A stretch of DNA of 64,000 nt from Patescibacteria group bacterium. GTDB lineage: Bacteria > Patescibacteriota > Microgenomatia > UBA10105 > UBA927. Within the stretch, counting starts at the first letter, position 1. The number at the start of each line of letters is the position of its first letter. A program made the position numbers and the translations under genes. The notes beneath the pieces were generated by a model. That model saw nothing but the letters and a program-made list of their open reading frames with translations. It did no database searches and was not told the DNA's origin. Positions 37,566-54,860 of this stretch are shown here, piece by piece. The stretch is taken from NCBI GenBank assembly GCA_049322955.1, contig JBMOPU010000012.1:19581-83580 (forward strand), written 5' to 3'.

Positions 37566-37599
37566 AAAGCCCATATAGTTCTGACGAAAGGATTCATTT

Positions 37600-37929: not shown

Positions 37930-37977
37930 CGGTTTTTTGGTCTTTACGCGAGGGAGTTCCTCAGCGATAATAGGTAT

Positions 37978-38274
37978 ATGGAAAGCTGTTCTGTTGACGG
38001 TGTTGCACAAATCACCTGTCTCGTTCCCCTTGTCGCGAATGTTATTCGAGCAGTTGTTTCATTGGGCGCAGTTGCATTGTTCGTCATGTTGCTTGCGGGA
38101 GGATTTAATTTTCTCTTTTCCTCAGGCGATCAGAAAAAACTTGAGTCTGCGCGCGGCACCGTTACACAAGCAATTACCGGTATTATCATCATGTCCGTCG
38201 CCTATCTTATTATCAAAACCATACAAGTATTTACCGGGGTGGACGTTTCAACCATACAGTTTCCCACCCAGTAA
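37978..38274 (+). CDS. T4SS-pilin-like (TrbC/VirB2-like) protein
   Basis: SSGDQKKLESARGTVTQAITGIIIMSVAYLIIK motif block. Confidence 0.5.
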   Translation: MESCSVDGVAQITCLVPLVANVIRAVVSLGAVALFVMLLAGGFNFLFSSGDQKKLESARGTVTQAITGIIIMSVAYLIIKTIQVFTGVDVSTIQFPTQ

Positions 38275-38312: not shown

Positions 38313-39932
38313 ATGAAACGAGTATTCGGAGCAATTATCGGGGTGCTGTTGAGCGTTGTTCTCGTCGTTACTCCTTCCGTGGTCTTTGCGCAGGGAACGG
38401 ATTCGACTGCCACCGCGGGAGCCGGCGAGTGTGATTCATGGTTTGTTGCTCCGGTCACGTGTCTTCTGGACCCTATCACGAAAGGGGTTGCCGGTTCATT
38501 AAATAAGCAGGTAGGCGACATCGGTACCGCAACATTTTCCATGGGACAAATGGTCATTGCGGGTATGGGTCTTTGTGATTCCGAATGTAATCCTAATTGT
38601 CCCAAGGGGGTAAGTTACCAGCATAGTGCCGTTGCGGGTCTTTCCACCACCGCGCTTGCGATGTATCAGAATCCTCCGGCCGAAACGAAAACCTATATTG
38701 CCGATGTCGGACAGACATTGGGATTCATGCCTAAAAAAGCGCAGGCACAGGGCATCGGATTTTCCGGACTTGCGGCCCTTCTCGAACTTTGGAAATCATT
38801 CCGGAACATCGCATATGCGTTGCTTGCCGTAATTCTGATTGTGGTGGGCTTTATGGTCATGTTTCGGAAAAAGATCGATCCCAAGACCGTCGTCACGGTG
38901 CAGAATGCGATCCCCCGCATTGTCATTGCCCTGCTTTTGGTCACCTTCTCCTATGCGATCGTCGGGGTCATGATTGACCTCATGTATCTTGCCATTGTGA
39001 TGATCGTTTCAATCGTTTCGGGAGCGGCTGGACCAGCTCTTGGCCAGTCGGTGAGCTTATTTACCACCGGCGGATCATGCGTCGGTTCGGGAACGGGAGC
39101 CGTAGAGATCGGCGCGGGAACGGCAACGACGGAAAAAGTGGCGAGCGTGCTGTTTAACGGCGGCGTCGGCGGATTAATGCAATTTTTCATGGGGAGCGGG
39201 TTTCAGGCATGGGACGATATTGCCGCAATGTTAACCGGCGGCTTTGATCCGAAAACGACCGCGGCATACTTTATCGTACCCGGACTTATCGGTGCACTGG
39301 TAGGTGGCGGCAAGGGATTATTCACCGGGCTCGTGTCCGCCCCGATACTCTTGACATTAATCATCCTCATCGTGTTAATCTTTGGGTTTATCAGACTCGT
39401 CTTCATGCTGATTGATGCCTATATAAACATCATCATTTCTCTCCTTACCGCCCCCTTCCATCTGATGATGGAGGCGGTTCCGGGCACCAATGCGTTTGCC
39501 AATTGGTTTAAAAACTTGCTTTCCAAGATTATTGTCTTCCCTATTACCGCAGTACTCCTTTTGGTCGCCGCAATTCTCACTTCACAAAATGTCGCCACGA
39601 GTATTTGGGCTCCTCCTATGCTTTCAACCGGCGGTGGCACATTCGGTATGGCCGGTATCATAGGACTCGGCATGTTGCTCGTGATTCCGACAGTCGTGGG
39701 AGGCATCCAAAAAGGCTTAAAGGCCGAGCCTCTTGTCCCCGGCGGCGTCGGACCAATCTTCGGACCTCTTGGCTCGGGCGTCGGACAACTCTTCTCGCTC
39801 GTCTATCAGGCGTCGTTCGTTTCAAGTGCGCTTCGCCACAAACCGGACGACCGATCGGGCATGCAAATTGCCAGAGAAGGCGCTTCAAAGGGTCTTGGCG
39901 CGATTACGGGCGCCGGCGGCGGCGGTCACTAA
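38313..39932 (+). CDS. VirB6/TrbL-like polytopic membrane protein (signal peptide, Cys-rich ectodomain, multiple TM, Gly-rich GGGGH tail)
   Basis: 539 aa, N-terminal signal, at least 6 TM helices, located immediately after the pilin array. Confidence 0.45.
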   Translation: MKRVFGAIIGVLLSVVLVVTPSVVFAQGTDSTATAGAGECDSWFVAPVTCLLDPITKGVAGSLNKQVGDIGTATFSMGQMVIAGMGLCDSECNPNCPKGVSYQHSAVAGLSTTALAMYQNPPAETKTYIADVGQTLGFMPKKAQAQGIGFSGLAALLELWKSFRNIAYALLAVILIVVGFMVMFRKKIDPKTVVTVQNAIPRIVIALLLVTFSYAIVGVMIDLMYLAIVMIVSIVSGAAGPALGQSVSLFTTGGSCVGSGTGAVEIGAGTATTEKVASVLFNGGVGGLMQFFMGSGFQAWDDIAAMLTGGFDPKTTAAYFIVPGLIGALVGGGKGLFTGLVSAPILLTLIILIVLIFGFIRLVFMLIDAYINIIISLLTAPFHLMMEAVPGTNAFANWFKNLLSKIIVFPITAVLLLVAAILTSQNVATSIWAPPMLSTGGGTFGMAGIIGLGMLLVIPTVVGGIQKGLKAEPLVPGGVGPIFGPLGSGVGQLFSLVYQASFVSSALRHKPDDRSGMQIAREGASKGLGAITGAGGGGH

Positions 39933-40063
39933 CACTCCCCTTTTTGTTACAGAATACACTCAGTATCTTTCCCTCGCCTTGGTTGCGTTTTGTTGCACCA
40001 TGAAATCATAAGGAAGTAGGGTCACCTGTGAGGAATTTCGGGGATATATGTCAACCAAAAGGG

Positions 40064-43000
40064 TTAATGGCCTCCCCCGCCACCGCCTCCCTTTTGTTCT
40101 TCAAGGGACTTTTCTGCGGCAATAGCTAGGGTTGCCAAAATTGGTACCCACCAGTATTTTCGCGCCATCGCCCACAATCGGTCGATAGGTAACGTACGGA
40201 ACTCCTTTTGCAGATCCTGCAGATACTCCGGATGATTGATAAAAAGCCCCATGTCATGGGCGGTATGAATAATTTCCGATATCTTTATTTCATCCCAGAC
40301 GTTTCCATGTGAACCGGTATATCGGGTAGAATAGGACACCGCTTCGGCAATGGAGTGCGGCCAATGCGCAATTTTTTCTTTTGCCAAATGTTGCCACCGT
40401 TCCTTGCCAAATATGGCCTGAAGAATTTTATTGTTCTCCAACCCGCGAAAATCCGGTTCAACATGCTGTAACAAACCGATAAGACCCGGAACGAGTTGCA
40501 TTGATAGGTGTCTTCCTTTGTTCATCTCAAAAAACACCCGCATCATTTCCTTGACGGTTGCTTCCGCCGCATCGGGACCCGAGTAGTCAACAATGGCGGT
40601 CCGCACTTCCATCATTTTCTGTAAGCTCTTGGTGTAATCGTTGGGAGACAGTACCATTTCCGAATTTGAGAAGAACTCCATAAGACCGTCGCGCGCGCGC
40701 ATCTGTGCTCCTACGTCACGAATACGCCGATGCATGGCGACGGTTCCCAGCTGATAAAAGTTTGTTTCTTTCCAGTCGAAATCGGTTAAGCTCATGGTGA
40801 GCGGCAGTTTCAGCGCGGCGATGGCGTCCATCTTATTTCTGAAATTCGTTCCCGATGCCTCAACGGGGCGGCTCCGATATATCTCCGCCTGCATATCCAC
40901 GATAATCTGGCGCATGCTTTCATTACGTGCAGGATCGAGATTTAAGATTTTCAAATACGGCGCCACCAAGGCATCGAAATCTTTCTTTTCGGCTAAATCA
41001 ATACGGGCAAATTGCCATTCTTTCTCATGCGCCATCTTGAGTTCGGCAAGCGAAAGCGCCTCTTTAAACTTCTTCCACTCTTCGTGGGTAATATTGTTTT
41101 TGGTAAGGATACGCTCCGTATCCTCCTCTAAAAGTTCGAGGAATTTCGAGGGATTTCTGCGTAACATACGATCGAGAATCGGACGTCGTTCTCCCGCATT
41201 ACCTGCCGTAAGGAGCTGAATGGAAAGCGCCTGATTATCCAAAAGCGCGGCGTTTTCCGGGAGCTTCTTTAAACTCAGCATCTTGCCGCGCAGTTCATCC
41301 GCGACTCCTTTTTCCAAACGCCATGCGGTGCCGTCGTAAAATCCCCCCGAAGCCATAAAGCCCGGTCCCAACAACTCACTGAATGATATACCCGTCGCGT
41401 CTTCGGCAAATTCCCATGTTTCCATGGATTTTTGTCGTTCTTTATCATGCTCGTGATGTTTGGCCTCGTGCCACTCTTTTGTTTTGGTAAGCTTGAACTT
41501 ATGTCCCAGACTTTCGGCGGCTCCGCTTATCTTCTTATACCAATTCGGTTCCTTGGGATTTATGCCTTTTGTCCGAAGCAGATTCTTGCGGAAGATACTT
41601 CGTGCCGTAATACCCATATCGCCGCCGATATTAAAACGGGTGGCAAATGTTTCAGGGTTAAATATCCGTTGTATGTCTTCGAAAGCGGGTGCCCGCATGA
41701 CATGCTTTCCGGAACTTGTTCCGTACTCCACCGCGGGAGGAACGGACATCATGGCACCGATCATGGCCATGCGACCCGAGCCAATCATGGCGGTGCGAGA
41801 AGCCCACAGCGCCATACGCACCTCATATTCGGCAGGCTTGTAGTTCGGGTCATCAGGATGCTGGGCTTTCAAATACTCGACGAGACGCTTTCGCACTTCG
41901 ATATCAACCGGCGATAACCCTCTCGTTTCCAAAAGCTCCTGGGTGAAATTTTCATTGAGCATTTCCTCGCGATGCGAATAAATCTGATAGAGACGTTCAA
42001 CCTCGGAAAGCTGTTCCGTTTCCTTTTCGGTGAGCGCGACTCCTTCACTCTTTTTCTTTAACAGTTGCTCGCGGGTATTTCTGAGTTTGGAAAGCGTAAT
42101 ATGGAGTTCCGTATAGCTTTGCACATCGTCATCCCACAACATGACTCCTTCTGCGGCCAAATCCATTTGCTGTTGAATCTCATGCATCAGCCGTTGATCC
42201 TCAACGGAAAGCGGGCTTTGGGTTTTGCCTTTTTCCGGATCAAATCCTTCCTGCCGCTGTTTTGCCTTGAGTTCTTTCAAAATATCTTCCCGCTTCATGG
42301 TCTTGCCGTTCCAGGTGATATCCTCACGCAAATACTTAATGGCTTCGCCGTATTTTGCTCGTTTTGTCGCCATAAGTTCAAAAAGCACATGTTCGTATAA
42401 GCTGTACGCTTCGTTGGAGTGGTCGAAGTTTTTATACAGATGATCAAGATCGGCTCCCTGCAACAAACTCATGGCTTTAAGCCGATCCTTCACATCACCG
42501 GGATTATACATAAGCCCTTTGACGGCATATTCGTATTGTCCCCGACTATCCCAGTGTTTTTGATACAGCTGTACCGCAAGGTGATATTCACTGCCGTACT
42601 TCCATACGAGGAAGTCTTTAAATTCCTGGAAGCGTTGGTCCTGTGTAAGGGTCGGCCGTGTTTCCTCGCGACCCATAGAATAAATCTGATCAATAAAATC
42701 GAAATACCAACGAGCTTCCCCTTCGTCACCCTGGATAAGCATTTCAACATCGGACGGCGGAATATAGCGGAAATCAGGAAACACCTCATCCGGCCGATGA
42801 AGCTCGGGATTGGGGGCATTGCCCATAACCTCTCCCCACGTGACCACTCGTCCGCCACGAAGCTTCTCCTGATGTTTCTGCATCCGCAAATCGGTAAATC
42901 GCTCGAAATGACGCACCCGTTCAACCGCCTGTTGGACGAGTTTTTCGTTGACACCTTCTTTTCTGCCTTTTTCTACAATGCGTCGCACCGCGTCGTCGGT

Positions 43001-43705
43001 GAGTCGCCCGTCGTAGGCGGCCCCCGGATCTACGCGGAACCGATACTGCAAGTCTTTAAGATCATTGGCAATCGGCGTATCCATAAGCTCCGTGTCAGTA
43101 GATTCGTCATACAAATTTTTCACTTCACGGGTTAGCTCGGGATCACTATCCGCCGCAGGGTCATCCTGTCCTTGCGCGGCATCCTCCCCTCCCGACCCGC
43201 CTTGTATAACGGGCATCGCCTCATACTGCAATCGCTCAAGGCTCGGATGCTCGGCAACGATTTTTCGCAAAAACTTCCGTGCTTCAACGGCGGTGGGGCT
43301 CGTAAATTCCGCATCTTTTGCCACTTGTACCAACTGCTCGGCAACCCCGCGCATATACTCGGGGTTCGCTAGCTGTGCTTCATCGGCAGTCAGCAATGAT
43401 TCGACGATACTAAACACGCGGGCATCTTTCGGTAGATCATGTTCACTGCCGATAATCCGTTTTGTCGCCTCAGACGTTGTTTCCGCAAGCTTACCGACGA
43501 GTGCCGCAAACCGTTCGGGCGATACGTCGTGTGTTTCGGGGAGAGCGGTCGTTCCTTCTTGCGGCATCTCGGGCGTTGCGGCGGGCGGCGTGGACGAAGG
43601 AGTTTCCGGGGTCGGCGATTGCTCCACGGGGCGAGCGGTGGGGGTTCCTTCCGCCGCTTTTTTTGCGGCCTCCGTCAGACGTTTAAATAGCTCTTCGTTT
43701 GCCAT
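40064..43705 (-). CDS. giant (1213 aa) acidic hypothetical protein with C-terminal TM anchor and GGGGGGH tail; T4SS-associated
   Basis: Single long ORF; internal antisense ORFs judged spurious. C-terminal WWVPILATLAIAA helix. Confidence 0.5.
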   Translation of the reverse strand: MANEELFKRLTEAAKKAAEGTPTARPVEQSPTPETPSSTPPAATPEMPQEGTTALPETHDVSPERFAALVGKLAETTSEATKRIIGSEHDLPKDARVFSIVESLLTADEAQLANPEYMRGVAEQLVQVAKDAEFTSPTAVEARKFLRKIVAEHPSLERLQYEAMPVIQGGSGGEDAAQGQDDPAADSDPELTREVKNLYDESTDTELMDTPIANDLKDLQYRFRVDPGAAYDGRLTDDAVRRIVEKGRKEGVNEKLVQQAVERVRHFERFTDLRMQKHQEKLRGGRVVTWGEVMGNAPNPELHRPDEVFPDFRYIPPSDVEMLIQGDEGEARWYFDFIDQIYSMGREETRPTLTQDQRFQEFKDFLVWKYGSEYHLAVQLYQKHWDSRGQYEYAVKGLMYNPGDVKDRLKAMSLLQGADLDHLYKNFDHSNEAYSLYEHVLFELMATKRAKYGEAIKYLREDITWNGKTMKREDILKELKAKQRQEGFDPEKGKTQSPLSVEDQRLMHEIQQQMDLAAEGVMLWDDDVQSYTELHITLSKLRNTREQLLKKKSEGVALTEKETEQLSEVERLYQIYSHREEMLNENFTQELLETRGLSPVDIEVRKRLVEYLKAQHPDDPNYKPAEYEVRMALWASRTAMIGSGRMAMIGAMMSVPPAVEYGTSSGKHVMRAPAFEDIQRIFNPETFATRFNIGGDMGITARSIFRKNLLRTKGINPKEPNWYKKISGAAESLGHKFKLTKTKEWHEAKHHEHDKERQKSMETWEFAEDATGISFSELLGPGFMASGGFYDGTAWRLEKGVADELRGKMLSLKKLPENAALLDNQALSIQLLTAGNAGERRPILDRMLRRNPSKFLELLEEDTERILTKNNITHEEWKKFKEALSLAELKMAHEKEWQFARIDLAEKKDFDALVAPYLKILNLDPARNESMRQIIVDMQAEIYRSRPVEASGTNFRNKMDAIAALKLPLTMSLTDFDWKETNFYQLGTVAMHRRIRDVGAQMRARDGLMEFFSNSEMVLSPNDYTKSLQKMMEVRTAIVDYSGPDAAEATVKEMMRVFFEMNKGRHLSMQLVPGLIGLLQHVEPDFRGLENNKILQAIFGKERWQHLAKEKIAHWPHSIAEAVSYSTRYTGSHGNVWDEIKISEIIHTAHDMGLFINHPEYLQDLQKEFRTLPIDRLWAMARKYWWVPILATLAIAAEKSLEEQKGGGGGGGH

Positions 43706-43785
43706 ATGCAGAATACACCGAATTGGCGCGCCAGATAGGTACGCCTAGTAATATTCTATCGTTTCGCCAGATGACAAACAAGGAG

Positions 43786-44340
43786 TTATCGATAAAGGCT
43801 GTGCGCGGCTATGTATTCGCTGATTGCGGGGGGAACAAACTGATCAACGGAAAGGCCTTTTGCCACCCGCTTGCGGATTTTTGTGGAGGAAATATTGCTC
43901 CCTACCAAAAGATCGCTCCCCACAATCGTCATGTTTTCATACAACGGCTCATTCGGGAATCCATACCGCGGAAAAACAAGGAAGGGCATTGTTGCGAGGA
44001 GATCTTTCCATCTCCCCCACAAATGAAATGTCGGCAGTTGATCGGACCCGATGATAAATCGGAATTCGTGTTCTTTCGGCAAAAACGGGAGCAGGTTTAT
44101 TGTGTCTCCGTCGAGTTTATGATCAATTTCTATGGTCGAAACTTTTGTTTTCTCAAGCGCGAGAAGCTTCGTCATCGCCAGCCGGTGGTGCACATCGGCA
44201 ACGGGTTTGGGGGGGATTTGGCCGTAATTGGGTAAAAACCATACTTCGTCCGTATCGGTAAAATCCAGCACTTGCCGGGCAATCATGAGGTGACCTATAT
44301 GGGGAGGGTTAAATGCGCCCCCTAACAATCCTATTTTCAT
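43786..44340 (-). CDS. nadD: nicotinate-nucleotide adenylyltransferase
   Basis: GGAFNPPHIGH motif, about 184 aa. Confidence 0.8.
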   Translation of the reverse strand: MKIGLLGGAFNPPHIGHLMIARQVLDFTDTDEVWFLPNYGQIPPKPVADVHHRLAMTKLLALEKTKVSTIEIDHKLDGDTINLLPFLPKEHEFRFIIGSDQLPTFHLWGRWKDLLATMPFLVFPRYGFPNEPLYENMTIVGSDLLVGSNISSTKIRKRVAKGLSVDQFVPPAISEYIAAHSLYR

Positions 44341-44345
44341 GGGTG

Positions 44346-46529
44346 CTATTGTACCTTCTTTGTGTAGCGTTCGCGAGAAACACGGATTACCGTGTCCCGT
44401 TGCTGGTTTCTGCTTTTGGGAAGCGGAAGCGTCGTTGCCGAAAACGGCGATGATGTTTTGTTGTCGATTGAAAGCTTCAAGACAACCTCAAAATTTCCCA
44501 ATCCCACCAACTCGGCCTCTTCATACTTTTCTCCGAATTCTCGTCCTAAGAGCCGTGCATCCGCCGCACCCACGGCAAACGATATGATTGATCCCGCGTT
44601 CCCGAAAATCGCTTTTTGTACGTCTTCATCAATCTGACCTATATACTGATTCGCAAGCGAAAGATTCAGTCGATACTTACGCGCTTCAGAAAGAATTTTG
44701 ATAAACGACTGTGTGGCGAAGTTCTGAAACTCGTCCACGTACAGATAAAAATCCCGTCGGTTTTCTTCGCTGACATAGACTCTGTTCATCGCCGCAAGTT
44801 GCATTTTCGTGATAATCATCGCGCCCAACAGTGCACTGCTGTCCTCCCCCAGCTTACCCTGGGACAAATTGACGATCACTATTTTTCCTTCATTCATCAT
44901 GTGTTCAAGATCAATGGTTGACGTTGGACTTCCGACAATATTTCTGATTGTTTTCGAAGACAAAAACTGCCCTACTTTGTTGAGTATCGGTGAAATGGAT
45001 TCGCTCCGCATTTGCGGGGACAGCTTGTTAAATTCGTTTAACCAAAAATTTTTGAGTACCCTGTCATCCAATTTTTCCACAATTTTCTCCCGGAATCGAT
45101 CGTTCGTCAAAAGTTCCGGAATGTCCAAAAACGTTGACTGCGGCACGTGGGTGAGCGTCAAAATGGTGTTTCGTAAAATGTACTCCAGCCGCGGCCCCCA
45201 ACTCATGTGATAGAGCTTATAAAATATCGAGACGATGCCAGAGGCAACTAATTCACGGTATGCGGGATTTTTCACTTCAAGCGCGTTGAGATGAAACGGA
45301 TGATCAGTGTCCGATGGATCAAGATATGCAACATCGTTTATCCGGTGTGAGGGTACGTAATCAAGAATGATGTCGCACAGATCTCCGTGCGGATCAATAA
45401 TGGCCATGCCCTCCCCGTTTTTCATATCGTTTATCGCCATATTGGCGATAAGGGTTGATTTTCCCGTGCCTGTTTTCCCGATGACGTAGACATGCTTTCG
45501 CCGGTCGGCTTTTTTGATTCCAAAGGTTGCCTGCATGTTTTTATATTCCGTTCGGGCAAAGAAATTGATCTGCCGTTTTTCCTCATCATCACTCCCCGCA
45601 ATCGGCAAATCTTCGGGGGCTTCGCCCAACAGGCGCGCACTCCAACGAATATTCTTAATCATTGATAACCCAAGACCCGGAGGGTGCCATAATGACGCAA
45701 TCTCCGAAGAACCGAGCACTTGGAAACGCGGTCTGGCGTAATCACTTCGCTCAATAAGCGCCTGCTCGAACTTTGTCTTTTGCCAAAACTGCGGTTCGGA
45801 TAACACAAGACTGTTCCCTTCTCCCAACGAATATACGCCAAAGGTGCCCGCAGTCGTCGTAAGAAGGCTTTTTGCCCGTTCCACGGCCGCCGCCACCGTA
45901 ACGATGCGAATAGCCGCATGAAACCCCGACTGGTTCATCTTCACCTCCATAAGCCGTGCGTGCGGGTGTGCTTTTGTTCTTCCCGTCGTGGAATGAGGGT
46001 CGGGCACCCCTTTTGCAATAAGAGAGGCTATCGATCGTTGCCATGAGGCACCGGCGGGCGTAAGCCGTATTTGAATAGCAACCGCTTCCTGGGAAGGAAG
46101 CTTTGCCAGCTGACCGACGACCCCGGAAAGGATATCAAGGTCTTTGATATCTTTATACGTGCGAAGCGGCAGATAAAAGCTGTTGCCATAGACAAGCTGT
46201 CCGACGCCGTGCGGAAGCGAAAGGAAATGGGGCATATAATCTTTCGCCGGTGAGATCAAAACACGCGGGTATTGTGCGGTAAGCTGACTTTCAACATAGG
46301 CGCGTTGATGATCGGCAGTCACGAGAAAAAAGTGGATACCGCTATTCACCGATACTATCTCCAGGCTTATTGATGAGCCGGGGGTATGTCCGCCGAACAA
46401 TCGCTGAAAAAATCCCCGATGGTCTCCCCCGGCGCTTAACGATGCGAGCACCTGCTCCATGGCAAGCGGAGACTCTTCGCTTTCCCGACTGTTTTGTATT
46501 TCTAAAATTACCTGTTCAGTACCGCTCAT
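44346..46529 (-). CDS. VirD4/TraG-like T4SS coupling ATPase (cytoplasmic, no N-terminal TM)
   Basis: Walker A VIGKTGTGKST followed by AIIDPHGDL. Walker B-like YLYVDEFQNF. Confidence 0.55.
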   Translation of the reverse strand: MSGTEQVILEIQNSRESEESPLAMEQVLASLSAGGDHRGFFQRLFGGHTPGSSISLEIVSVNSGIHFFLVTADHQRAYVESQLTAQYPRVLISPAKDYMPHFLSLPHGVGQLVYGNSFYLPLRTYKDIKDLDILSGVVGQLAKLPSQEAVAIQIRLTPAGASWQRSIASLIAKGVPDPHSTTGRTKAHPHARLMEVKMNQSGFHAAIRIVTVAAAVERAKSLLTTTAGTFGVYSLGEGNSLVLSEPQFWQKTKFEQALIERSDYARPRFQVLGSSEIASLWHPPGLGLSMIKNIRWSARLLGEAPEDLPIAGSDDEEKRQINFFARTEYKNMQATFGIKKADRRKHVYVIGKTGTGKSTLIANMAINDMKNGEGMAIIDPHGDLCDIILDYVPSHRINDVAYLDPSDTDHPFHLNALEVKNPAYRELVASGIVSIFYKLYHMSWGPRLEYILRNTILTLTHVPQSTFLDIPELLTNDRFREKIVEKLDDRVLKNFWLNEFNKLSPQMRSESISPILNKVGQFLSSKTIRNIVGSPTSTIDLEHMMNEGKIVIVNLSQGKLGEDSSALLGAMIITKMQLAAMNRVYVSEENRRDFYLYVDEFQNFATQSFIKILSEARKYRLNLSLANQYIGQIDEDVQKAIFGNAGSIISFAVGAADARLLGREFGEKYEEAELVGLGNFEVVLKLSIDNKTSSPFSATTLPLPKSRNQQRDTVIRVSRERYTKKVQ

Positions 46530-46652
46530 GAGGTAATCTTATCACACGAATTTTTTCGCTGTTCGTGAAAACTTAAAAAGTGGAGTTTTCACGGTCCTGA
46601 TGCGCTTTGTGCTATTGAACCCCATTCGTTTTCCCTCTACAATATTTTTAGT

Positions 46653-47963
46653 ATGGAGCAACATCCAGTACCGCAAAATGTCACCACTTTTCAGTTCCGT
46701 CTCATCGGAGACATGACGCTGAAGCAGTTCGGATATCTTATTGCGGGCGGTATCCTCGCCGTTATCGCCTATAAGTTGCCGCTTCCGTTCATCGTCACTT
46801 GGCCGCTTGCGGGTGCGTTTGCGTTTCTTGGTGTCGGCTTTGCGTTTATTCCCGTTGAAGAGCGGCCGATGGATGTATGGGTCTTTTCGTTTTTTAAAAG
46901 CGTCTATAGTCCCACACAATATATTTGGTCCCACACCCAAGAACCGGCACCCGTACAAATGCCGACTCCGGTGAAACAACCTGCTCAGCCTCAAGTTCCG
47001 CCAAAACCGGTTGCGGCCGCGGTAGCACAACCCGCTCCGTCTCCCATCGTTTCCCCGGCACCGTCGTCACAAAAAGCCGTGTTGTCCAATTTGTTCCAGC
47101 CGGTGCCGCAGGCGCCGAAGCCGGCGGTTCCGTCATCGTTTGCCGTTCCCCCGGTGCCTCATTCATTCCTTGATAACGTGTCGTCATTTTTCCACCCCAA
47201 ACCGCACCCTGCCCCCGCGTCATCACCCGCTCCTGCGCCCGTTCCATCGGTAACGGGACACCACCCCGTTGTTCCCCAGCAGACACCGCAACAGGTCGCC
47301 GACGCACAGGCCAATACCGCGATGCATGCAAAGATGGCAAGTTTAGAGGCGACGCTCAAGGCGCTTGAGGAAAAACTGTCCGCAAAGACGGTTACCGAAG
47401 AAAGGGTGCTTGAATTACAAAAGCAACTTACTGAGGTCATGACCCAAAAAGCAAAAACAGAGGAGGAACTTATCGCCCTCAAACGACATAGGGAACAGCC
47501 CCCCGCCCCGATGCCCCCTCCCGCGACAACACCACCGCCATCGGCACCTGTTCCTCCGTTGACTCCCGCCTCCCGCGGCGCGGTGAACGTCATAACAACG
47601 CAGGAAGGTGCGGTCAAGGCGGGTCTTCCCCGGCTGACTAACGTGCCCAATGTGGTAACGGGCCTCGTTAAAGACGATACCGGTAATTTCCTCCCCGGAA
47701 TACTCGTCACCATAACAAACAGCGAGGGTGTTCCGGTGCGAGCACTTAAAACAAACAAGTTGGGACAATTTGCCGCCTCAACCCAGCTCGCCTCGGGTAC
47801 GTATTTTGTTGAAATCGAGGATCCGCGCGCACGATTTACCTTTTCGCGCGTACAAATCACGTTAAACGGTGCGGTCGTGCCCGTTCTTGAAATAATCGCC
47901 AAAAGCGAAAAGGTTTTAACCCGCGAAAAACTCGCACAGGAAATATTCGGCAAAACAACCTAG
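46653..47963 (+). CDS. PrgI/VirB3-like membrane protein fused to Pro-rich linker, coiled coil and C-terminal beta-sandwich-like domain
   Basis: N-terminal FQFRLIGDMTLKQFGYLIAGGILAVIAY + second TM. Long PAPxP linker. VKDDTGNFLPGILVTITNSEGVP carboxypeptidase-regulatory-like fold hint. Confidence 0.45.
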   Translation: MEQHPVPQNVTTFQFRLIGDMTLKQFGYLIAGGILAVIAYKLPLPFIVTWPLAGAFAFLGVGFAFIPVEERPMDVWVFSFFKSVYSPTQYIWSHTQEPAPVQMPTPVKQPAQPQVPPKPVAAAVAQPAPSPIVSPAPSSQKAVLSNLFQPVPQAPKPAVPSSFAVPPVPHSFLDNVSSFFHPKPHPAPASSPAPAPVPSVTGHHPVVPQQTPQQVADAQANTAMHAKMASLEATLKALEEKLSAKTVTEERVLELQKQLTEVMTQKAKTEEELIALKRHREQPPAPMPPPATTPPPSAPVPPLTPASRGAVNVITTQEGAVKAGLPRLTNVPNVVTGLVKDDTGNFLPGILVTITNSEGVPVRALKTNKLGQFAASTQLASGTYFVEIEDPRARFTFSRVQITLNGAVVPVLEIIAKSEKVLTREKLAQEIFGKTT

Positions 47964-47967
47964 ACCT

Positions 47968-48630
47968 ATGGCAGAACCTATTACGCCTATCCGTGATTCT
48001 ACACAAACATTCACCGAGATTGCGGCGGTGGAGCGAGATCTTGTACTCTTTCGCGACGGCTCGGTCGCTCTCGTTATTTCGACGACTGCGGTGAATTTCG
48101 GACTGCTTTCCGAAAAAGAACAGGATGCGATTATTTATTCCTATGCGGGGCTCTTAAATTCCCTGTCCTTCCCAATTCAGATCCTTATCCAAACAAAACA
48201 CAAGGATATTTCCGCCTATCTTAAACTGCTTGAGGATCAGGAAGGAAGACAAACGAACCCCAAACTCACCAAGAATATTCACAGCTACCGGTTGTTTGTT
48301 GCGTCCATGGTGAAAGAAAAGGATGTGCTTGATAAGAAATTTTATATCGTTATCCCCTTTTCCAGCATCGAGTTGGGAGTTTCCTCGTCCCTGCTGTTTA
48401 GTCCCAAAAAATCCGGTCTTCCCTATGAAAAATCCTATATTTTGGATAAGGCCGCCATGGTGTTAGGTCCGAAACGGGACCATATTGTCCGACTGCTTGC
48501 ACGCGTGGGACTCAAGGCGACACAGTTATCATCCGATGCGCTCGTCAAACTGTTTTTCAGCATGTATAACCCCGGAAGCCCTGCGCCGGACGTATCAAAA
48601 CTTTTCCCCGGAAAGGAGCCCCGTGAGTAA
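47968..48630 (+). CDS. hypothetical protein
   Basis: 220 aa, between the PrgI-like and VirB4-like genes. Confidence 0.4.
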   Translation: MAEPITPIRDSTQTFTEIAAVERDLVLFRDGSVALVISTTAVNFGLLSEKEQDAIIYSYAGLLNSLSFPIQILIQTKHKDISAYLKLLEDQEGRQTNPKLTKNIHSYRLFVASMVKEKDVLDKKFYIVIPFSSIELGVSSSLLFSPKKSGLPYEKSYILDKAAMVLGPKRDHIVRLLARVGLKATQLSSDALVKLFFSMYNPGSPAPDVSKLFPGKEPRE

Positions 48631-50557
48631 TCCGTTTGACTTAAACGCTATGGTCGGCAAATTGCTGAACCCCACTCCCCCGTCAAAAGGCGGCGTTCCC
48701 GCGACCGGCAAGCCCCTTGCCGTAACGGATGTCATCGCTCCTCCCGCCATTGAAGTGGACTTTGATCTTCTGAAGATCGGCGATTGGTATTATCGCTCAC
48801 TTTTTGTCGCGGGTTATCCTCGCTTTGTTTCCGCCAACTGGCTCGAACCGCTCGTTTCGTTTAATCACACGCTTGATATTTCGATGTATATTTATCCGAC
48901 CCGGAGCGAAGAGATTCTTGAAAACCTCAAGCGCAAAGTGGGAGAAATGGAGGCAACCATTCAGTCTGATTTGAAACGGGGTCGCGTCATCGAACCGTCC
49001 GTGCAGGTTGCCTTAGAAGATGCGCTCGCCCTCCAGCAAGAACTCGCAAAAGGGTCGGAGCGTTTCTTCCAGTTCGGCCTTTATGTCACGATCCCCGCAA
49101 AAACCCGTGAAGATCTCGACAAAACGACAAAGTCGGTTGAGGCAACCTTGGGAAGTCTTTTGATCGTCACGAAAAAATCCATCCTCCAAATGGAAGAAGG
49201 CCTCAAAACAACGCTCCCCATGGGAAAGGATCGCTTACTGGTGACGCGAAATATGGACACCACGTCCCTCGCAACAACCTTCCCCTTCACCACCAGTGAA
49301 CTTACCGCAAATGAAGGAATTTTGTACGGGCTTAACGAGCACAACGATTCGCTTATCATATTTGACCGCTTCACGCTCGAGAATGCGAATTCCGTCGTAT
49401 TCGGCAAGTCCGGAGGAGGAAAAAGTTACATGGTCAAACTTGAAATCATGCGGAGCCTGATGTTTGACACCGAAGTCATCGTCATCGACCCCGAAAATGA
49501 GTATGAGGCGCTCACTCATACGCTCGGCGGCGAGTATATTCGTTTCCGTTTCGGATCAGCAACAAAACTCAACCCTTTTGATCTTGCATTGCTGGGTAAC
49601 GACGGGTCGTCGCAAACGGAGCTCAGCCAAAAAGTTTTATCGCTCCACGGATTTTTCCGCGTCGTCATGGGAAAACTCACGCCAACCGAAGACGCGCTTC
49701 TTGATCGAGCGCTCATTCTCACCTATAAGCAAAAGGGTATCACTCCCGACCCCACAACCCATGGGAAAGAACCTCCGCTTATGGAGGATTTGTATAAAAC
49801 GCTCGTCGGCATGGAAGAAACGCTCGCAAAAGGACTTGCCGATCGCATAGAAAAGTTCGTGAAAGGAAGTTTGGTCGGCATATTTGATCAGCAAACGAAC
49901 ATAGAGATCAGAAATCAACTCACCGTCTTTTCTATCCGGGATCTGGAGGATGAATTGCGGCCGATCGCCATGTACCTTATTCTCGATTTTATTTGGAATA
50001 AGGTTCGTCACAATAAAAAGCGCCGCCTCCTCATCGTCGACGAGGCATGGTACATGATGAAATATCCCGATTCCGCCCAGTTTCTTTATGGCATAGCCAA
50101 GCGCGCCAGAAAATATTATTTGGGGCTTACGACCATCACGCAGGACGTTGAAGACTTCATGGCGACGGAAATGGGCAAGGCGATTATCCAAAACAGCAGT
50201 ATGCAAATACTCCTCAAACAGTCGACCGCGGCAATTGAAACCATCGCACAAGTTTTTTATCTTTCCGAGGGAGAAAAACATTTACTGCTTGCGGCCGATG
50301 TCGGACAAGGGCTCTTTTTTGCAGGGCCCGCTCACGCCGCCATGCGGGTCATTGCAAGCCCCGAGGAGCATGAGGTGGCGACCACCAAACCGCAGGAGGC
50401 GCTGAAACCGAAGAGTGTTCCGCCGCAACCGGCCCAACAACCGGTAACCGCCTCCCCAACCGGTCATACGGTCACCGTGCAACAGCCGACAATTCCTCCT
50501 ACAAGTAACCGGCCGATTTTCACTGTTGAAACAGTGGATACGAAGCCCATAACATAA
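48623..50557 (+). CDS. VirB4/TrbE-like T4SS ATPase
   Basis: Walker A GKSGGGKSY followed by VIVIDPENEY. Walker B LLIVDEAW. GTG start after AGGAG RBS chosen over the overlapping ORF-track start. Confidence 0.65.
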   Translation: MSNPFDLNAMVGKLLNPTPPSKGGVPATGKPLAVTDVIAPPAIEVDFDLLKIGDWYYRSLFVAGYPRFVSANWLEPLVSFNHTLDISMYIYPTRSEEILENLKRKVGEMEATIQSDLKRGRVIEPSVQVALEDALALQQELAKGSERFFQFGLYVTIPAKTREDLDKTTKSVEATLGSLLIVTKKSILQMEEGLKTTLPMGKDRLLVTRNMDTTSLATTFPFTTSELTANEGILYGLNEHNDSLIIFDRFTLENANSVVFGKSGGGKSYMVKLEIMRSLMFDTEVIVIDPENEYEALTHTLGGEYIRFRFGSATKLNPFDLALLGNDGSSQTELSQKVLSLHGFFRVVMGKLTPTEDALLDRALILTYKQKGITPDPTTHGKEPPLMEDLYKTLVGMEETLAKGLADRIEKFVKGSLVGIFDQQTNIEIRNQLTVFSIRDLEDELRPIAMYLILDFIWNKVRHNKKRRLLIVDEAWYMMKYPDSAQFLYGIAKRARKYYLGLTTITQDVEDFMATEMGKAIIQNSSMQILLKQSTAAIETIAQVFYLSEGEKHLLLAADVGQGLFFAGPAHAAMRVIASPEEHEVATTKPQEALKPKSVPPQPAQQPVTASPTGHTVTVQQPTIPPTSNRPIFTVETVDTKPIT

Positions 50558-50562
50558 CGGGT

Positions 50563-52710
50563 ATGGCAGACGAGGCTCAATCACTGCAGGAATTTACCAA
50601 AAACCTCCTTTCCGATGTGGAAAGCGGCGCTATTTCCGTACACGAAGCGCTTGCGGCCGCCGAACAGTATTCCTATTTGCGGGAAGAAATTTCCGCCGCG
50701 TCCCTCACCTTAAGTGAGGCGGCGGCCGCGGGAGACGATGAACTTACCCAGGCATTCATTACGCTTATTTCCGCAACAATCGAAAAAATAACGGAGCTTC
50801 CCAATTTCCAGTCGCAGAGGCCGGACAGCCTGGAAACGGAAAAGGAAATACGCGATACCGCGGCGCTTCAAAAAACGGCCGCAACCAGACTGCGGGAGGC
50901 AACGGCGAACAAACCGGGAAAAGACGCCAGGCGGGCATTCGTTCATGACCTTGTCGCAAAGTTTAGCGCAACGGTTCCGTCTCTGTCGGAACGGGAGATG
51001 GAGCGCTTGGTCAATGCCTCTGCGGCAACTGCGGCACAACAATCAACTGCAGAACAAGAAGGGCGCTTCAGAACCGAACTTTCAACGCGAATTGCCGGCG
51101 TTTCGGAAAACGATTCGCCGGAGCAACGGCGACGAATTGAGGCTATCGTCGATACGGCGGTAAAAACCAGAACGGGCGCGGTTACCGACCATATCCGCGT
51201 GGTGGGAGAAGAAGTTGCGGTGTTTTCCGTGTTATTTAACGCGGAAGACATGAAGCGGCCTGACGTGTTTGCCGATATCGTTCTCCATGCGCCCGGTTCG
51301 GAAAACCTCGATCAGACGTTGGCTCGTGCGGAAAAGCTTGCCCGCGCGGCTCAGGCACTTGAAGAGGCGGCGGGATCCCGCGGCGGCAGGTTGCAATTTT
51401 TTTCAAGTGACGGCGCCAAGGGAGTAGCGGGCGGATTACAAAAAGGTGCCGACGGCATTCTTTCGCTTGTGGGAGAACCGGTTCGTGACATGGTACTGAG
51501 GGAAAAAGTGAACGGCACGTTGCGGTCGATGCTTGCGGGTACCCAGCAGTTTGCAGACAGGCTGGGAGAATCGTTTGTTCATTCCGCTCTTTTTACCCAT
51601 ATCGGCCAGGATCTTACAAAGCAGTTGTCCCAAAAACCCCAAGGGGGCGGCGCCGGAGGCGTGTTGGGTGACGTTTTCTCAACGGTTTTTCGCGGCCCGC
51701 TTAGTCTCCCTCTCGAGAGGAGTACCAAAAATGCCATTCTTGATTACTACGAACTTGCGCGCGCAAATGCGGCGGCTCCTCCCGGCCGGGCGTTTCTTGC
51801 TCCGGGTGTTTTCCCTTGGGACATTTTTCGGGTGGCGGATCGGGCAAAAAATGCGGCGGCATCAATACGTGCGGGAGGTGCCCGTTCGCGTTCCCTATTT
51901 CCTTTTTTGGGCCTGGGATCCGCAGGCGCTTTCCTCGGCGACTTTCTGAGCGGACTTGTTGATCGGGTGACTTCATTTGCACTCCTCAATCCGAGGCTTC
52001 CCGGGCAACTTTCAGCGGGAAGAAGGGCCGCGGCAATTCCTACGGCAATAGTGGATGATATGCCGCTTTTCGTGGCACTTGTCGTCGTTGTTGTGCTCGT
52101 GCTTTTTTTCCTATTCCCTTCGCCATTAAATATTACCCAGATAAGCCATAGTTCAAAGATAACCGCGCTTTTTTCCTCGCTTACGGCAAACGAAGACGTG
52201 CCCGCAACCACCAATAATAACGGGTGGCCGGTAAAGTGCGGGTGTATTATCAACGGGCCGTTTGAAGACACCCACTCAGACAATCAGCTCAACGCCATCG
52301 ACTTTAATTTTGAAGGATGTAGTCCAAAAACAAACGTGGGGCTGTATGCTACCGCAAAAGGGAAGGTTACCGCGATATCACAGCAATACGGCGTCGGGGA
52401 AACCTGTTTTTCCCGTGCTGAGTGCGGTGGAAGAAGCACCTACGGCAACTATATTCAGATCACCATCACGGAAGGGCCGGCAAACGGCTATGTCCTCCTT
52501 TACTCCCACATGGCAACCATAAAGGTGCACGAGGGACAGAGCGTTGAAAAAGGAGATCTGGTTGGCACCAGCAACCATAATGGGTTATCTTACCAAGAAC
52601 ATCTACACTTTGAGGTGATGGGGAGCCATTCCCATCCCCCGCTCAACCAGACGAATCCGGTCACTCCGCAGGCCGCAACAAACGGGCTGTGTGTTTCGGG
52701 TGGGATATAA
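50563..52710 (+). CDS. membrane-associated M23-family metallopeptidase (cell-wall hydrolase) with long N-terminal helical region
   Basis: C-terminal M23 motifs HSDNQLNAIDF ... NGLSYQEHLHFE. Internal TM (MPLFVALVVVVVLVLFFLF). Confidence 0.6.
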   Translation: MADEAQSLQEFTKNLLSDVESGAISVHEALAAAEQYSYLREEISAASLTLSEAAAAGDDELTQAFITLISATIEKITELPNFQSQRPDSLETEKEIRDTAALQKTAATRLREATANKPGKDARRAFVHDLVAKFSATVPSLSEREMERLVNASAATAAQQSTAEQEGRFRTELSTRIAGVSENDSPEQRRRIEAIVDTAVKTRTGAVTDHIRVVGEEVAVFSVLFNAEDMKRPDVFADIVLHAPGSENLDQTLARAEKLARAAQALEEAAGSRGGRLQFFSSDGAKGVAGGLQKGADGILSLVGEPVRDMVLREKVNGTLRSMLAGTQQFADRLGESFVHSALFTHIGQDLTKQLSQKPQGGGAGGVLGDVFSTVFRGPLSLPLERSTKNAILDYYELARANAAAPPGRAFLAPGVFPWDIFRVADRAKNAAASIRAGGARSRSLFPFLGLGSAGAFLGDFLSGLVDRVTSFALLNPRLPGQLSAGRRAAAIPTAIVDDMPLFVALVVVVVLVLFFLFPSPLNITQISHSSKITALFSSLTANEDVPATTNNNGWPVKCGCIINGPFEDTHSDNQLNAIDFNFEGCSPKTNVGLYATAKGKVTAISQQYGVGETCFSRAECGGRSTYGNYIQITITEGPANGYVLLYSHMATIKVHEGQSVEKGDLVGTSNHNGLSYQEHLHFEVMGSHSHPPLNQTNPVTPQAATNGLCVSGGI

Positions 52711-52719
52711 TAGAAGAGT

Positions 52720-53721
52720 ATGAGATTTTTAAAAAAACGTGCGGTGATTCTTACAATACTCTTATTCCTTCTTCTGGGAGGGGCGCTGGCATTTCGATCC
52801 GTGCAAAAAAACGTCACCCCCACCGTCACTCCCGCTCTTCCGACGGCCATTCCCATATCCTTGTACCCGTTGCCGCTTGTGAGCCCCGCCGCGGAAAATC
52901 AGTCAACGGTGTTTGTGGTGGGTTTTACGCCAAAAGACGAAGTGAAAACGGTTCCTGCGTATCGCGCGCTACCGACCGATCCATATGGGGTAGCGGAACG
53001 GCTTGCCAATAAAGTGCTCAGCAATCCGACGATGAGCCAGGACTCGGGCGTCAGGTTTTGGAAAACATCGAGCGCCCAGGTAACCGGCCAGGCAATTCCA
53101 CCGCGCGTCTCGTATCAGGCATATGACCTCCCCACACAGACAGGTCAGGGGCTTACCGAGGCGCGTGCCGAAGAAATAGCGCGAGACACCGCCCGGGATC
53201 TCGGTGTCGTGGGAGCGGAATATTCCTTTACAAACCCCATCGTGAGCAGATTCGACGGAACCCGCACACACCCCGAAGGAGAAGTGCAGAGCGGCGGAAT
53301 CACGAAGGTCGGTCTTACCTATATGCTTGCGGGGTTGCCGGTAGTGGATAGCACGGGAGGCTCATTACTGTTTTCGGTGACTGTTGACATGACCGGCAAG
53401 ATGTTGGGGTTAAGTACTGCGGTTCCTCCTACGGTGTTGCTTGCTAACACGGTGTCCGTTATTCCCATAAGCCAGGCGGTTGTCGCGCTTACCAACAATA
53501 GGGGGGTGCTTACTTCCGCTCAATACGATAGGGTGGATGTCGGGGCGTCTCTTGTCCGCCCCCGCATAAAAAACGCAACAATTACGTCCGTGGCACTAAA
53601 ATACCTCTGGAACGACCGAGCGCAGGTTGTTATGCCGGTTTATGTGTTTGACGGTTACTCCGATGATGATATCCAAAACGGCCGAATAAACCTCCTCTAT
53701 TTCGTCTCTGCCACGCCGTAA
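52720..53721 (+). CDS. hypothetical exported/membrane-anchored protein
   Basis: N-terminal TM/signal, 333 aa. Confidence 0.45.
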   Translation: MRFLKKRAVILTILLFLLLGGALAFRSVQKNVTPTVTPALPTAIPISLYPLPLVSPAAENQSTVFVVGFTPKDEVKTVPAYRALPTDPYGVAERLANKVLSNPTMSQDSGVRFWKTSSAQVTGQAIPPRVSYQAYDLPTQTGQGLTEARAEEIARDTARDLGVVGAEYSFTNPIVSRFDGTRTHPEGEVQSGGITKVGLTYMLAGLPVVDSTGGSLLFSVTVDMTGKMLGLSTAVPPTVLLANTVSVIPISQAVVALTNNRGVLTSAQYDRVDVGASLVRPRIKNATITSVALKYLWNDRAQVVMPVYVFDGYSDDDIQNGRINLLYFVSATP

Positions 53722-53753: not shown

Positions 53754-54860
53754 TTAGGAGCTTACCCGAACCGGCATGATGATGTGGATGAATCCATCGT
53801 CTTTCACCGGCCGGAAGAGTCCCGAGTTAAGCGAGCCGGTCATTTCAAATAAAAATTCGCTTTCGGAAAAATTCGTTAAAAAGTCCAGGAGAAAACGGCT
53901 GTTAAACGCGATCTCTCCCCCCTCCCCGTCAATTTTTGCGGCTATTTCCACAGCATTTTTCCCCGTCTGTGCGGCGTTTGCAGAAACGGTTATTTGTTGT
54001 TTGTCCAACTGTAGGCGGACGATGTTCGCATTGTCACGGGCAAAGATAGCGGCAGACTTCACCGCATGAAGAAAAGGCTCTTTTTCGATAAGCGCCCGTG
54101 TCGTAAATGTCTTGGGGATGATTCTTTCAAAGTTGGGGTACTCTCCGTCAATGAGGCGGGTGCAAAGCGTCGTGTCTCCGATGATAAAGCCCGCCTGGTT
54201 TCCTCCCGCAAGCCCGATGCGCACTTCTTTTTCCTCTTTTTCCTCACCGCTTAGGCGAACGACTTCGGAAAGCGCCTTTGCCGGGATAATTGATCCCGAG
54301 AGTTTCCCTACGGGAAGATCAACGCGCCGAAGGGAAAGCCGGTATCCGTCGGTCGCGACAAACAGCGTTTTTTCCCCCTCGTCGACGATACGAACGCCGG
54401 TTAATACGGGCCTTCCCTCATCCGTTGCCGCGGCAAAGAGAACGCTCGACAATACGCCTCCGAGCTTTCCTTTATCAATCCCTGATGCTTCTTTCGCGGC
54501 AAGGTCGGGTTTTTGCGGAAACTCCTTTGCATTGACGGTAGGAAGCTCCGCAGTAAATTTCCCGCACGAAACATGGAGCGTCTCGTCGGCAACAACCAAA
54601 TGCACTGTTTCAGGAGGAAGGGATGCCACAAACTCCGTGAGGATACGCGCTGACACGCATACTTCCCCTTCTTTCTCGGTTTTGCTTCCTACCCAGATCG
54701 TTTCGGTTGTTTCCATGTTCGTGGCGGTAATTTCCAATCCTTGGTTCGTGGACACAAGCTTTATATTTTGGAGAACCGCTAGTTGTGGCCGGGGAGGAAC
54801 CACTCTCGTTATCCGCGTTAATGCTTTTAAAAGGTTTTCTTGAAGAACTTTGATATTCAT
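53754..54860 (-). CDS. dnaN: DNA polymerase III beta subunit (sliding clamp)
   Basis: MNIKVLQENLLKAL start, three-domain length of 368 aa. Confidence 0.85.
   Translation of the reverse strand: MNIKVLQENLLKALTRITRVVPPRPQLAVLQNIKLVSTNQGLEITATNMETTETIWVGSKTEKEGEVCVSARILTEFVASLPPETVHLVVADETLHVSCGKFTAELPTVNAKEFPQKPDLAAKEASGIDKGKLGGVLSSVLFAAATDEGRPVLTGVRIVDEGEKTLFVATDGYRLSLRRVDLPVGKLSGSIIPAKALSEVVRLSGEEKEEKEVRIGLAGGNQAGFIIGDTTLCTRLIDGEYPNFERIIPKTFTTRALIEKEPFLHAVKSAAIFARDNANIVRLQLDKQQITVSANAAQTGKNAVEIAAKIDGEGGEIAFNSRFLLDFLTNFSESEFLFEMTGSLNSGLFRPVKDDGFIHIIMPVRVSS

Follow-up and report, generated by a model that had tools for sequence, protein, structure and literature searches.

What kind of machine is encoded by the genes that lie beside the replication origin in this DNA, and what is a giant protein of 1213 aa doing among them? 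The window (the whole stretch of 64000 nt analysed here, from contig JBMOPU010000012.1 of a Patescibacteria bacterium) had been described, in an original prediction made from the letters alone, as carrying at 38313–53721 a module resembling a type IV secretion system (T4SS). We consider it highly probable that the region is a chromosomal, origin-proximal and relaxase-free Patescibacteria T4SS of Candidatus Gottesmanbacteria (Microgenomatia), which stems from monoderm MPF-FATA conjugation machinery and has the giant protein as a proposed accessory. Systems of this kind were published in 2023–2025 (PMC12102498, PMC10633639, PMC12857230) and coincide with the core of this reading; the window is a further member, and its novelty is confined to the giant protein family and to the pairing of this protein with the VirB6 candidate, marked by a shared tail. 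A literature search on Gottesmanbacteria with a T4SS found nothing.

Gene content of the locus

The genes of the locus and of the adjoining origin are listed below with their window coordinates and strand (TM, transmembrane; T4CP, type IV coupling protein).

36100–38274, plus strand: six tandem VirB2-like pilin genes (PF18895, two TM helices each)
36100–36408, 36415–36774 and 36780–37145, plus strand: pilins 1–3 (PF18895)
37151–37492, 37600–37929 and 37978–38274, plus strand: pilins 4–6 (PF18895)
38313–39932, plus strand: polytopic membrane protein of 539 aa, VirB6-like candidate (signal peptide, about 6 TM helices)
40064–43705, minus strand: giant protein of 1213 aa, no family match
43786–44340, minus strand: nadD, nicotinate-nucleotide adenylyltransferase (TIGR00482)
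44346–46529, minus strand: soluble T4CP-like ATPase of 727 aa (GKTGTGKST...IIDPHGDL)
46653–47963, plus strand: PrgI/VirB3-like fusion of 436 aa (PF12666)
47968–48630, plus strand: TrsD-like protein of 220 aa (NF041427)
48650–50557, plus strand: VirB4 ATPase of 635 aa (NF045971; GKSGGGKSY...VIDPENEY)
50563–52710, plus strand: bitopic M23 peptidase of 715 aa, putative VirB1 analogue (PF01551)
52720–53721, plus strand: exported or membrane-anchored protein of 333 aa (N-terminal hydrophobic anchor)
53754–54860, minus strand: dnaN (Pfam)
54959–55034: DnaA-box cluster in the dnaN–dnaA spacer (TTATCCACA boxes)
55045–56412, minus strand: dnaA (Pfam)

The open reading frames (ORFs) and both Walker A/B motifs named in the original prediction were all found at their claimed coordinates in the ORF map. 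Its inventory of the module was therefore real as far as it went, but it had missed the TrsD-like gene and the six pilin genes, with which the module starts 2.2 kb earlier.

The VirB4 ATPase matched NF045971 (‘VirB4-like conjugal transfer ATPase, CD1110 family’) at 397.6 bits against a cut-off of 325, with further matches to P-loop_TraG (89.7 bits) and AAA_10 (55.3 bits), and is, judged by sequence similarity, unambiguously of the CD1110/MPF-FATA type; its identity across relatives is 65–95%. The 220-aa protein encoded before it resembles TrsD (NF041427, E 1.9e-6, below the curated cut-off) and the N-terminal region of VirB4_plasma (E 1.5e-5), and its gene is separate from virB4 in all relatives, whose orthologues carry the TraC-like PF26593. 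The 436-aa protein, predicted to be a PrgI/VirB3-like fusion, does open with a PrgI domain (PF12666, 27.6 bits, barely above the gathering cut-off, GA, of 27), which its orthologues also carry. This domain has two TM helices at residues 26–64 (TM segments were judged by hydropathy with the standard 19-residue threshold) and is followed by a Pro-rich linker, a coiled coil and a C-terminal beta-sandwich-like domain; a CarboxypepD_reg match to the protein, at 30.8 bits, is under its GA of 32.3. The six pilins, of 98–121 aa and with two predicted TM helices in each, all matched PF18895 (T4SS_pilin) with E values of 1.7e-10 to 7e-4, although only pilin 5 scored above GA (41.2 against 26.6 bits) and the other five fell below it (E 1e-5 to 7e-4). 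Six-gene pilin arrays are kept in all related loci, and pilin 5 is the best-conserved pilin across relatives (66–100% identity).

Downstream of virB4, the expected M23 peptidase was recovered (PF01551, 51.4 bits) as a 715-aa protein with an N-terminal region of about 500 aa, a TM helix at 500–518 and then the predicted extracellular peptidase; its identity across relatives is 24–82%. The last gene encodes the exported protein of the original prediction, of 333 aa with an N-terminal hydrophobic segment, which gave no Pfam or NCBIfam match and is the fastest-evolving gene of the module. In the plasmid system pCF10 the gene order is PrgH–PrgI–PrgJ(VirB4)–PrgK(hydrolase)–PrgL, and in gene position the 333-aa protein corresponds to the VirB8-like PrgL.

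No relaxase family was found in the about 40 ORFs of the 64-kb window that were scanned against Pfam, as had been predicted, and the T4SS module is for this reason probably not conjugative.

Conservation of the locus and its place beside the origin

The locus was compared with its counterparts in 18 species genomes and in deeper relatives. Its order, M23–VirB4–TrsD–PrgI, divergent from T4CP-like ATPase–nadD–(nadE)–giant, which is in turn convergent with VirB6-like–six pilins, themselves divergent from an ECF (extracytoplasmic function) sigma factor gene, is found in the 18 species genomes and kept even in deeper relatives in which the giant protein falls to about 20% identity. VirB4, TrsD, the T4CP-like ATPase and pilin 5 are the slow-evolving parts, and the M23 protein, the 333-aa protein and the C-terminal part of the PrgI-like protein evolve fast, which fits surface exposure of these parts.

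Only 33 nt separate the end of the module from the start of dnaN, and the DnaA-box cluster lies 1.2 kb away in a 184-nt dnaN–dnaA spacer that holds three perfect TTATCCACA boxes and one box with one mismatch. Cumulative GC skew falls over the first 50 kb of the window and is then flat near 50–56 kb. Since dnaN and dnaA, the DnaA boxes and the turn of the GC skew coincide here, the module adjoins oriC, as first proposed. Its GC content is that of the surrounding chromosome.

Comparison with known T4SSs

These features agree with the description of Patescibacteria T4SSs by Quinonero-Coronel et al. (2025, PMC12102498), in which VirB4 is nested in MPF-FATA, TrsD is its commonest partner and PrgI/VirB3 is present. 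According to the same study (PMC12102498), VirB2 arrays of 2–11 genes occur especially in Microgenomatia and Saccharimonadia, M23-containing hydrolases are present and relaxases almost absent, VirB6 is barely detectable in Microgenomatia, and the T4SS lies near dnaA/dnaN in Paceibacteria and Microgenomatia. The marks of this group found in the window are an MPF-FATA-type VirB4, TrsD-like and PrgI-like genes upstream of virB4, a pilin array, the lack of a relaxase and proximity to dnaA/dnaN. As to the marks of a conjugative element, there is no relaxase, and the locus is fixed and syntenic in 18 of the 18 species genomes found.

A comparison with Saccharibacteria T4SS loci, which the original prediction had proposed, led to the T4SS of Southlakia epibionticum ML1 (SEML1_0005–0019), which is located at the origin, has six pilins and no relaxase, and cannot be lost without loss of epibiotic growth (Wang et al. 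2023, PMC10633639). The Patescibacteria T4SS, studied in Saccharibacteria, was the first for which it was shown that the bacterium carrying it cannot do without it. The window shares with the Patescibacteria and Southlakia systems an MPF-FATA-type VirB4 following TrsD-like and PrgI/VirB3-like genes, six divergent VirB2-like pilins with a polytopic VirB6 candidate, a peptidoglycan hydrolase right after virB4 with no relaxase, and a chromosomal position beside dnaA/dnaN with large unknown helical proteins in the locus. However, a T4CP-like ATPase inside the locus is a minority arrangement among Patescibacteria (148 of 5,713 homologues, PMC12102498), and here it stands in an operon with nadD (nadE in relatives) and the clade-specific 1213-aa protein. 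The VirB6 candidate of the window, at 539 aa and missed by VirB6 models, also differs from the ‘extended’ VirB6 of Southlakia (1088 aa); in addition, the hydrolase of the window is M23 only and not lysozyme-like, and two of the subunits carry a GGGGH tail.

With the Gram-positive conjugative T4SSs (pCF10 Prg/Pcf and Tcp-like systems of Bacillus) the locus has in common the core order VirB6–VirB3(PrgI)–VirB4–hydrolase–VirB8-like and a VirB4 of the same NCBIfam family (CD1110). Those systems, however, reside on mobile elements, pair the T4CP with an adjoining relaxase, carry surface adhesins and lack pilins, whereas the window locus has pilins, neither relaxase nor adhesin, and is chromosomally fixed. 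At the level of the system the window therefore brings nothing new; as a clean Microgenomatia example it pins down a cryptic VirB6 candidate, an in-locus coupling-type ATPase and a previously unrecognized, strongly conserved partner of about 1200 aa.

The giant protein and its pairing with the VirB6 candidate

The 539-aa protein has a predicted signal peptide, an extracellular region of about 140 aa and about 6 TM helices, and its gene lies between the pilins and the remaining T4SS genes, a position that is conserved in relatives. It gave no match in Pfam, NCBIfam or PHROG, its profile found no PDB sequence, and among its 589 homologues a Pfam domain was present in none of the 120 listed. The original prediction of a VirB6-like polytopic protein thus held for helices and position, but found no support in sequence; the VirB6-like label, a putative one, comes from topology and position, and it is from these that we infer a VirB6-like working.

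The giant protein has no signal peptide, a Pro/Glu-rich N-terminus and an all-alpha body, and it ends in a conserved apolar helix (RKYWWVPILATLAIAA) followed by EEQK and then GGGGGGGH-COOH. Across the family the C-terminal pattern is an RKYWWVxPxATIAxA helix followed by EEEKK, with a Gly run ending in His in the Gottesmanbacteria subclade. The protein had been called acidic and tail-anchored: its charge (195 D+E against 164 K+R) makes it acidic, but only mildly so, and the apolar stretch YWWVPILATLAIAA that would form the anchor exists and is conserved in sequence, but is short and remains below the 19-residue hydropathy threshold.

An exhaustive profile search of 1.84 billion representative proteins returned 103 matches to the giant protein, about 60 of them full length (1130–1590 aa), so that on this evidence it represents a small, clade-restricted family. 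The 41 close clusters, 45–98% identical, are all full length at about 1200 aa, and the closest relative contig encodes a giant protein 98% identical to that of the window. None of 39 diverse family members matched Pfam, no PDB sequence matched, and no match was found in 72,556 plasmids. The structure prediction that had been suggested for this protein gave a confident model: with close homologues alone AlphaFold2 reached a pLDDT of 61.8 and a pTM of 0.29, and the addition of distant members to deepen the alignment yielded a usable all-alpha model (pLDDT 86.3, pTM 0.77). Foldseek found no neighbour for it in the PDB (best E 0.09, TM-score at most 0.1) or among viral structures (best E 1.5e-3, TM-score at most 0.13). 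Within the subclade the giant protein is as conserved as the ATPases, and in deeper relatives identity is about 20%; long blocks are identical in 21 of 21 aligned homologues, which are 45–88% identical to the window protein.

Two observations connect this protein with the VirB6 candidate. In every locus with a 3′ flank the giant gene is convergent with the VirB6-like gene, even though different genes stand upstream of it (nadD, nadE, a Fic gene or a Y1 transposase). In addition, the VirB6-like protein also ends in a Gly-rich tail closed by His (...GAGGGGH, coded at the gene end 39908–39932; the giant's GGGGGGGH at 40064–40093), and in the 1703 ORFs of 27 loci compared such a tail is exclusive to the giant and VirB6-like orthologues and is present in both or absent from both. 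Because of this constant convergence despite changing neighbours, and of the exclusive and co-varying tail, the giant protein appears to belong functionally with the VirB6-like protein; the shared tail and the convergent pairing are the best evidence for this link.

The DNA encoding the Gly tails was also considered as an inverted repeat or bidirectional terminator, which we rejected as the main cause of the similarity: codon complementarity is partial, conservation is at the protein level, and codons and lengths vary. An NAD-related enzymatic role for the giant protein, considered from its adjacency to nadD and nadE, was likewise set aside, as no similarity supports it and the upstream neighbour varies.

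The Southlakia locus also holds unknown helical proteins of about 1000–1100 aa, together with an extended VirB6 with an ARM-like domain, a further point in favour of the giant protein as a possible T4SS accessory. The extended VirB6 proteins of Rickettsiales and of Southlakia (SEML1_0013) combine a polytopic part with a large hydrophilic helical domain, which in the window may be contributed by the giant protein; here, however, the two parts are separate convergent genes without demonstrated sequence or fold similarity to them, and the comparison serves as a working analogy. We tentatively propose, as one possible account, that the giant protein is a new T4SS subunit family with a new all-alpha fold, confined to a Microgenomatia clade centred on Gottesmanbacteria, and that it forms a cytoplasmic platform docked on the VirB6 analogue via its C-terminal helix and Gly-His tail, where it could act as an in-trans extended-VirB6 domain and/or as a tether of the TM-less ATPase. 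The pair with its co-varying tail offers a testable lead to the cytoplasmic architecture of the Patescibacteria T4SS.

The T4CP-like ATPase and the nadD operon

The 727-aa ATPase consists of an N-terminal domain of about 330 aa (DUF8128 in orthologues; a literature search on DUF8128 found nothing) followed by a P-loop domain. Among its Pfam matches above GA are three coupling-protein families, TrwB_AAD_bind (32.8 bits, GA 20.5), TraG-D_C (25 bits, GA 22) and T4SS-DNA_transf (21.5 bits, GA 20.1), whereas FtsK_SpoIIIE, at 13.2 bits, is below its GA of 24. Against the PDB, TrwB was the best match (E 1e-5), followed by DotL (0.03) and HerA (0.59), and no NurA-type partner gene was seen. By these scores the protein leans towards T4SS families rather than towards FtsK/HerA, and VirB4 scored above its equivalog cut-off, so that the case that would refute the original prediction, an assignment of the ATPases to FtsK/HerA, probably does not apply. 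The 727-aa protein nevertheless scored only 37.9 bits against an NCBIfam T4CP equivalog cut-off of 250. It had been described as a soluble VirD4/TraG-like ATPase, and although solubility and coupling-protein affinity both stand, its sequence places it as an atypical, membrane-domain-less T4CP relative in the FtsK–HerA superfamily and not as a canonical VirD4.

The orthologues, which are 64–98% identical across relatives, carry PF26449, PF10412, PF01935 and PF12696, some sources labelling them T4SS DNA-transfer or DNA-binding proteins, and their precomputed domains are DUF8128, TrwB_AAD_bind and DUF87 (with TraG-D_C in some). The best full-length plasmid homologues are Bacillus ‘DUF87 domain-containing’ proteins, 23–25% identical over about 90% of the length of the ATPase. 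In Bacillus these homologues open conjugation operons that continue with a relaxase of the replication-relaxation family, TcpC/D/E-like genes and a VirB4-like ATPase, so these plasmid homologues occupy the coupling-protein position.

A gap of 5 nt separates nadD (TIGR00482, 129.2 bits against a cut-off of 112.45) from the ATPase gene upstream of it, and one of 80 nt, with a predicted promoter-like site, from the giant gene downstream. The three genes share one transcription direction on the minus strand, exactly as had been described. nadD is kept here in every locus that covers the position and follows the common gene order; in one short contig (L023) a Fic gene stands upstream of the giant gene where others have nadD. 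In four deeper relatives a nadE gene (NAD synthase) stands between nadD and the giant gene (L020 8337–9689, L021 8647–9962, L025 8509–9859 and L027 7560–8910). From this comparison the ancestral order is reconstructed as ATPase–nadD–nadE–giant; in the window nadE is missing here, having been lost from the position or moved. Since the clade as a whole keeps the operon of T4CP-like ATPase, nadD, (nadE) and giant, nadD (and nadE, where relatives have it) is an old housekeeping passenger of it.

Proposed working and alternative explanations

In the proposed working, VirB4 and its TrsD-like partner would dock on the PrgI/VirB3-like and VirB6-like membrane proteins, and VirB4 would drive the extraction and polymerization of at least one of the six pilins. 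The cell wall would be opened locally by the bitopic M23 peptidase, and the 333-aa exported protein would fill the VirB8 position. The soluble and divergently transcribed T4CP-like ATPase may feed substrates to the channel; given the lack of a relaxase, the cargo is more likely to be proteins or other material exchanged with the host cell than conjugative DNA. The giant protein, predicted to be all-alpha and to face the cytoplasm, would be kept at the membrane by its C-terminal helix and might be an accessory subunit docking on the VirB6-like protein and providing it in trans with the large hydrophilic domain of an ‘extended’ VirB6; possibly it also tethers the ATPase that has no membrane domain of its own.

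Several points weigh against this interpretation of the locus and of its parts. The steps of the mechanism are drawn by analogy from homologous systems, and VirB6 homology of the 539-aa protein is undetectable by sequence: hhalign of its profile against PrgH of pCF10 gave a probability of 0.15%. For the ATPase, the top Pfam score is that of the generic DUF87, the HerA central domain (40.9 bits, likewise above GA), a family that also matches the VirB4 of the window (30.9 bits); no TM segment was found in it by hydropathy, the N-terminal membrane domain of T4CPs being absent; and hhalign was non-discriminating, with 38% against a single FtsK motor, in the Walker B region alone, and about 1% against PcfC and PrgJ. 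Relatives of the ATPase, 21–26% identical, occur in large Bacillus phages (CP-51, phage G and 0305phi8-36), and the protein matches phrog_5156 at 255 bits. The T4CP homologue is non-essential in Saccharibacteria (PMC12102498). Moreover, the locus of the most distant close relative (L020) is without the ATPase while nadD–nadE–giant remain, which weakens the idea that the giant protein tethers the ATPase. Convergent giant and VirB6-like genes are not what simple gene fission would be expected to leave. Finally, synteny in the clade spans about 25 kb and includes mevalonate-pathway genes, and adjacency alone is therefore weak evidence of function.

One alternative is that T4CP-like ATPase–nadD–giant is a separate housekeeping operon (for example of envelope, division or nucleotide-cofactor function) nested in the T4SS locus, with a giant protein unrelated to secretion. 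nadD and nadE are ordinary genes of NAD biosynthesis, the conservation of the ATPase (64–98%) far exceeds that of the surface parts of the T4SS, only 148 of 5,713 Patescibacteria T4CP homologues lie near virB4 and the homologues are perhaps exapted (PMC12102498), and the linkage, in view of the wider synteny, may be inertia. We nevertheless think this unlikely, although it is the most serious of the alternatives, as the giant gene remains paired tail-to-tail with the VirB6-like gene through changes of its upstream neighbours, the GGGGH tail is exclusive to these two proteins and co-varies between them, and in plasmids the nearest homologues of the ATPase come first in conjugation operons. The same tail could be read differently, as the recognition signal of a translocated effector encoded near a coupling-type ATPase. 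T4SS signals are typically C-terminal, and the giant protein ends in a Gly-His tail and carries a charged EEEKK motif that is conserved. At depth its evolution is fast, with identity dropping from 88% to 20% where VirB4 stays at least 65% identical, and the structural matches to it, weak and non-significant, are to phage proteins that are ejected. Such an effector is nonetheless rather improbable: an apolar helix precedes the tail and the integral membrane VirB6-like protein bears the same tail, which a resident subunit fits better; the blocks identical in all aligned homologues are atypical for effectors; and with TM-scores of at most 0.13 the Foldseek matches carry no significance.

The function of the system as a whole has also been read as DNA uptake or secretion rather than conjugation. 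That it is probably non-conjugative stands, but uptake of DNA by a competence-type T4SS (ComB/Ced-like) has, in our view, a very small probability. In its favour are the lack of a relaxase, weak NCBIfam similarity to the archaeal CedB (48.8 bits) and CedD (34.7 bits), and a ComF-like gene in the window (20252–20938). The Ced scores, however, are far under their cut-offs of 700 and 600, and the best match of VirB4 is the conjugation-type CD1110 family. In Southlakia, deletion of comEC ends competence and not viability, competence depends on type IV pili, and it is the T4SS that is essential. Still further removed, and scarcely credible, is the notion that the module belongs to an integrative conjugative element still active in DNA transfer. 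In favour of it are the conjugative ancestry of the VirB4 family, the neighbouring T4CP-like ATPase and, in the same window, a mobile island that encodes a serine recombinase and a Prim-Pol protein. Yet relaxases are missing from the ORFs scanned, module GC equals that of the host chromosome, the locus is fixed beside dnaA/dnaN between core genes across the whole clade, and the mobile island, with its GC content of 36%, is 25 kb off and has its end at a tRNA-Ser gene. We therefore retain the reading of a fixed, probably non-conjugative Patescibacteria T4SS with the giant protein as its proposed accessory.

Neighbouring genes and other features of the window

Two small genes adjoin the pilin array and are divergent from it; they are kept beside it in most related loci.

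35497–36039, minus strand: ECF-type sigma factor (Sigma70_r2 and r4_2 matches)
35264–35494, minus strand: 76-aa ORF beside the sigma factor gene

In L027 the pilins and the sigma factor gene are separated by a gene for a polyprenyl synthase. A Yip1-like membrane protein (34587–35369), also divergent from the array, is conserved near it as well. The sigma factor and the 76-aa ORF, perhaps with the Yip1-like protein, are possible regulators of the T4SS.

Beyond these lies a complete-looking mevalonate cluster (28008–34590), with diphosphomevalonate decarboxylase, GHMP kinases, thiolase, an HMG-CoA synthase-like protein and HMG-CoA reductase, which is syntenic with the T4SS locus across the clade. 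The ComF-like gene (double zinc ribbon plus phosphoribosyltransferase) is 16 kb from the T4SS; comF near a T4SS is found mainly in the ABY1 class (PMC12102498).

The first part of the window (1–10917) is a low-GC island (36% against 50% GC) that ends at tRNA-Ser(gga) (10832–10917) and is probably an integrated mobile element. It encodes a large serine recombinase (9125–10963), a Prim-Pol/PriCT/AAA_25 primase-helicase (6650–8572), a defence-like protein of 592 aa with Mrr_cat and TIR domains (1061–2839) and unknown ORFs, and no relaxase was seen in it. Seven minus-strand tRNA genes, five for tRNA-Ser and two for tRNA-Arg, lie within 9 kb (10832–19549), and one of the tRNA-Ser genes carries the anticodon ACT, which is unusual for bacteria.

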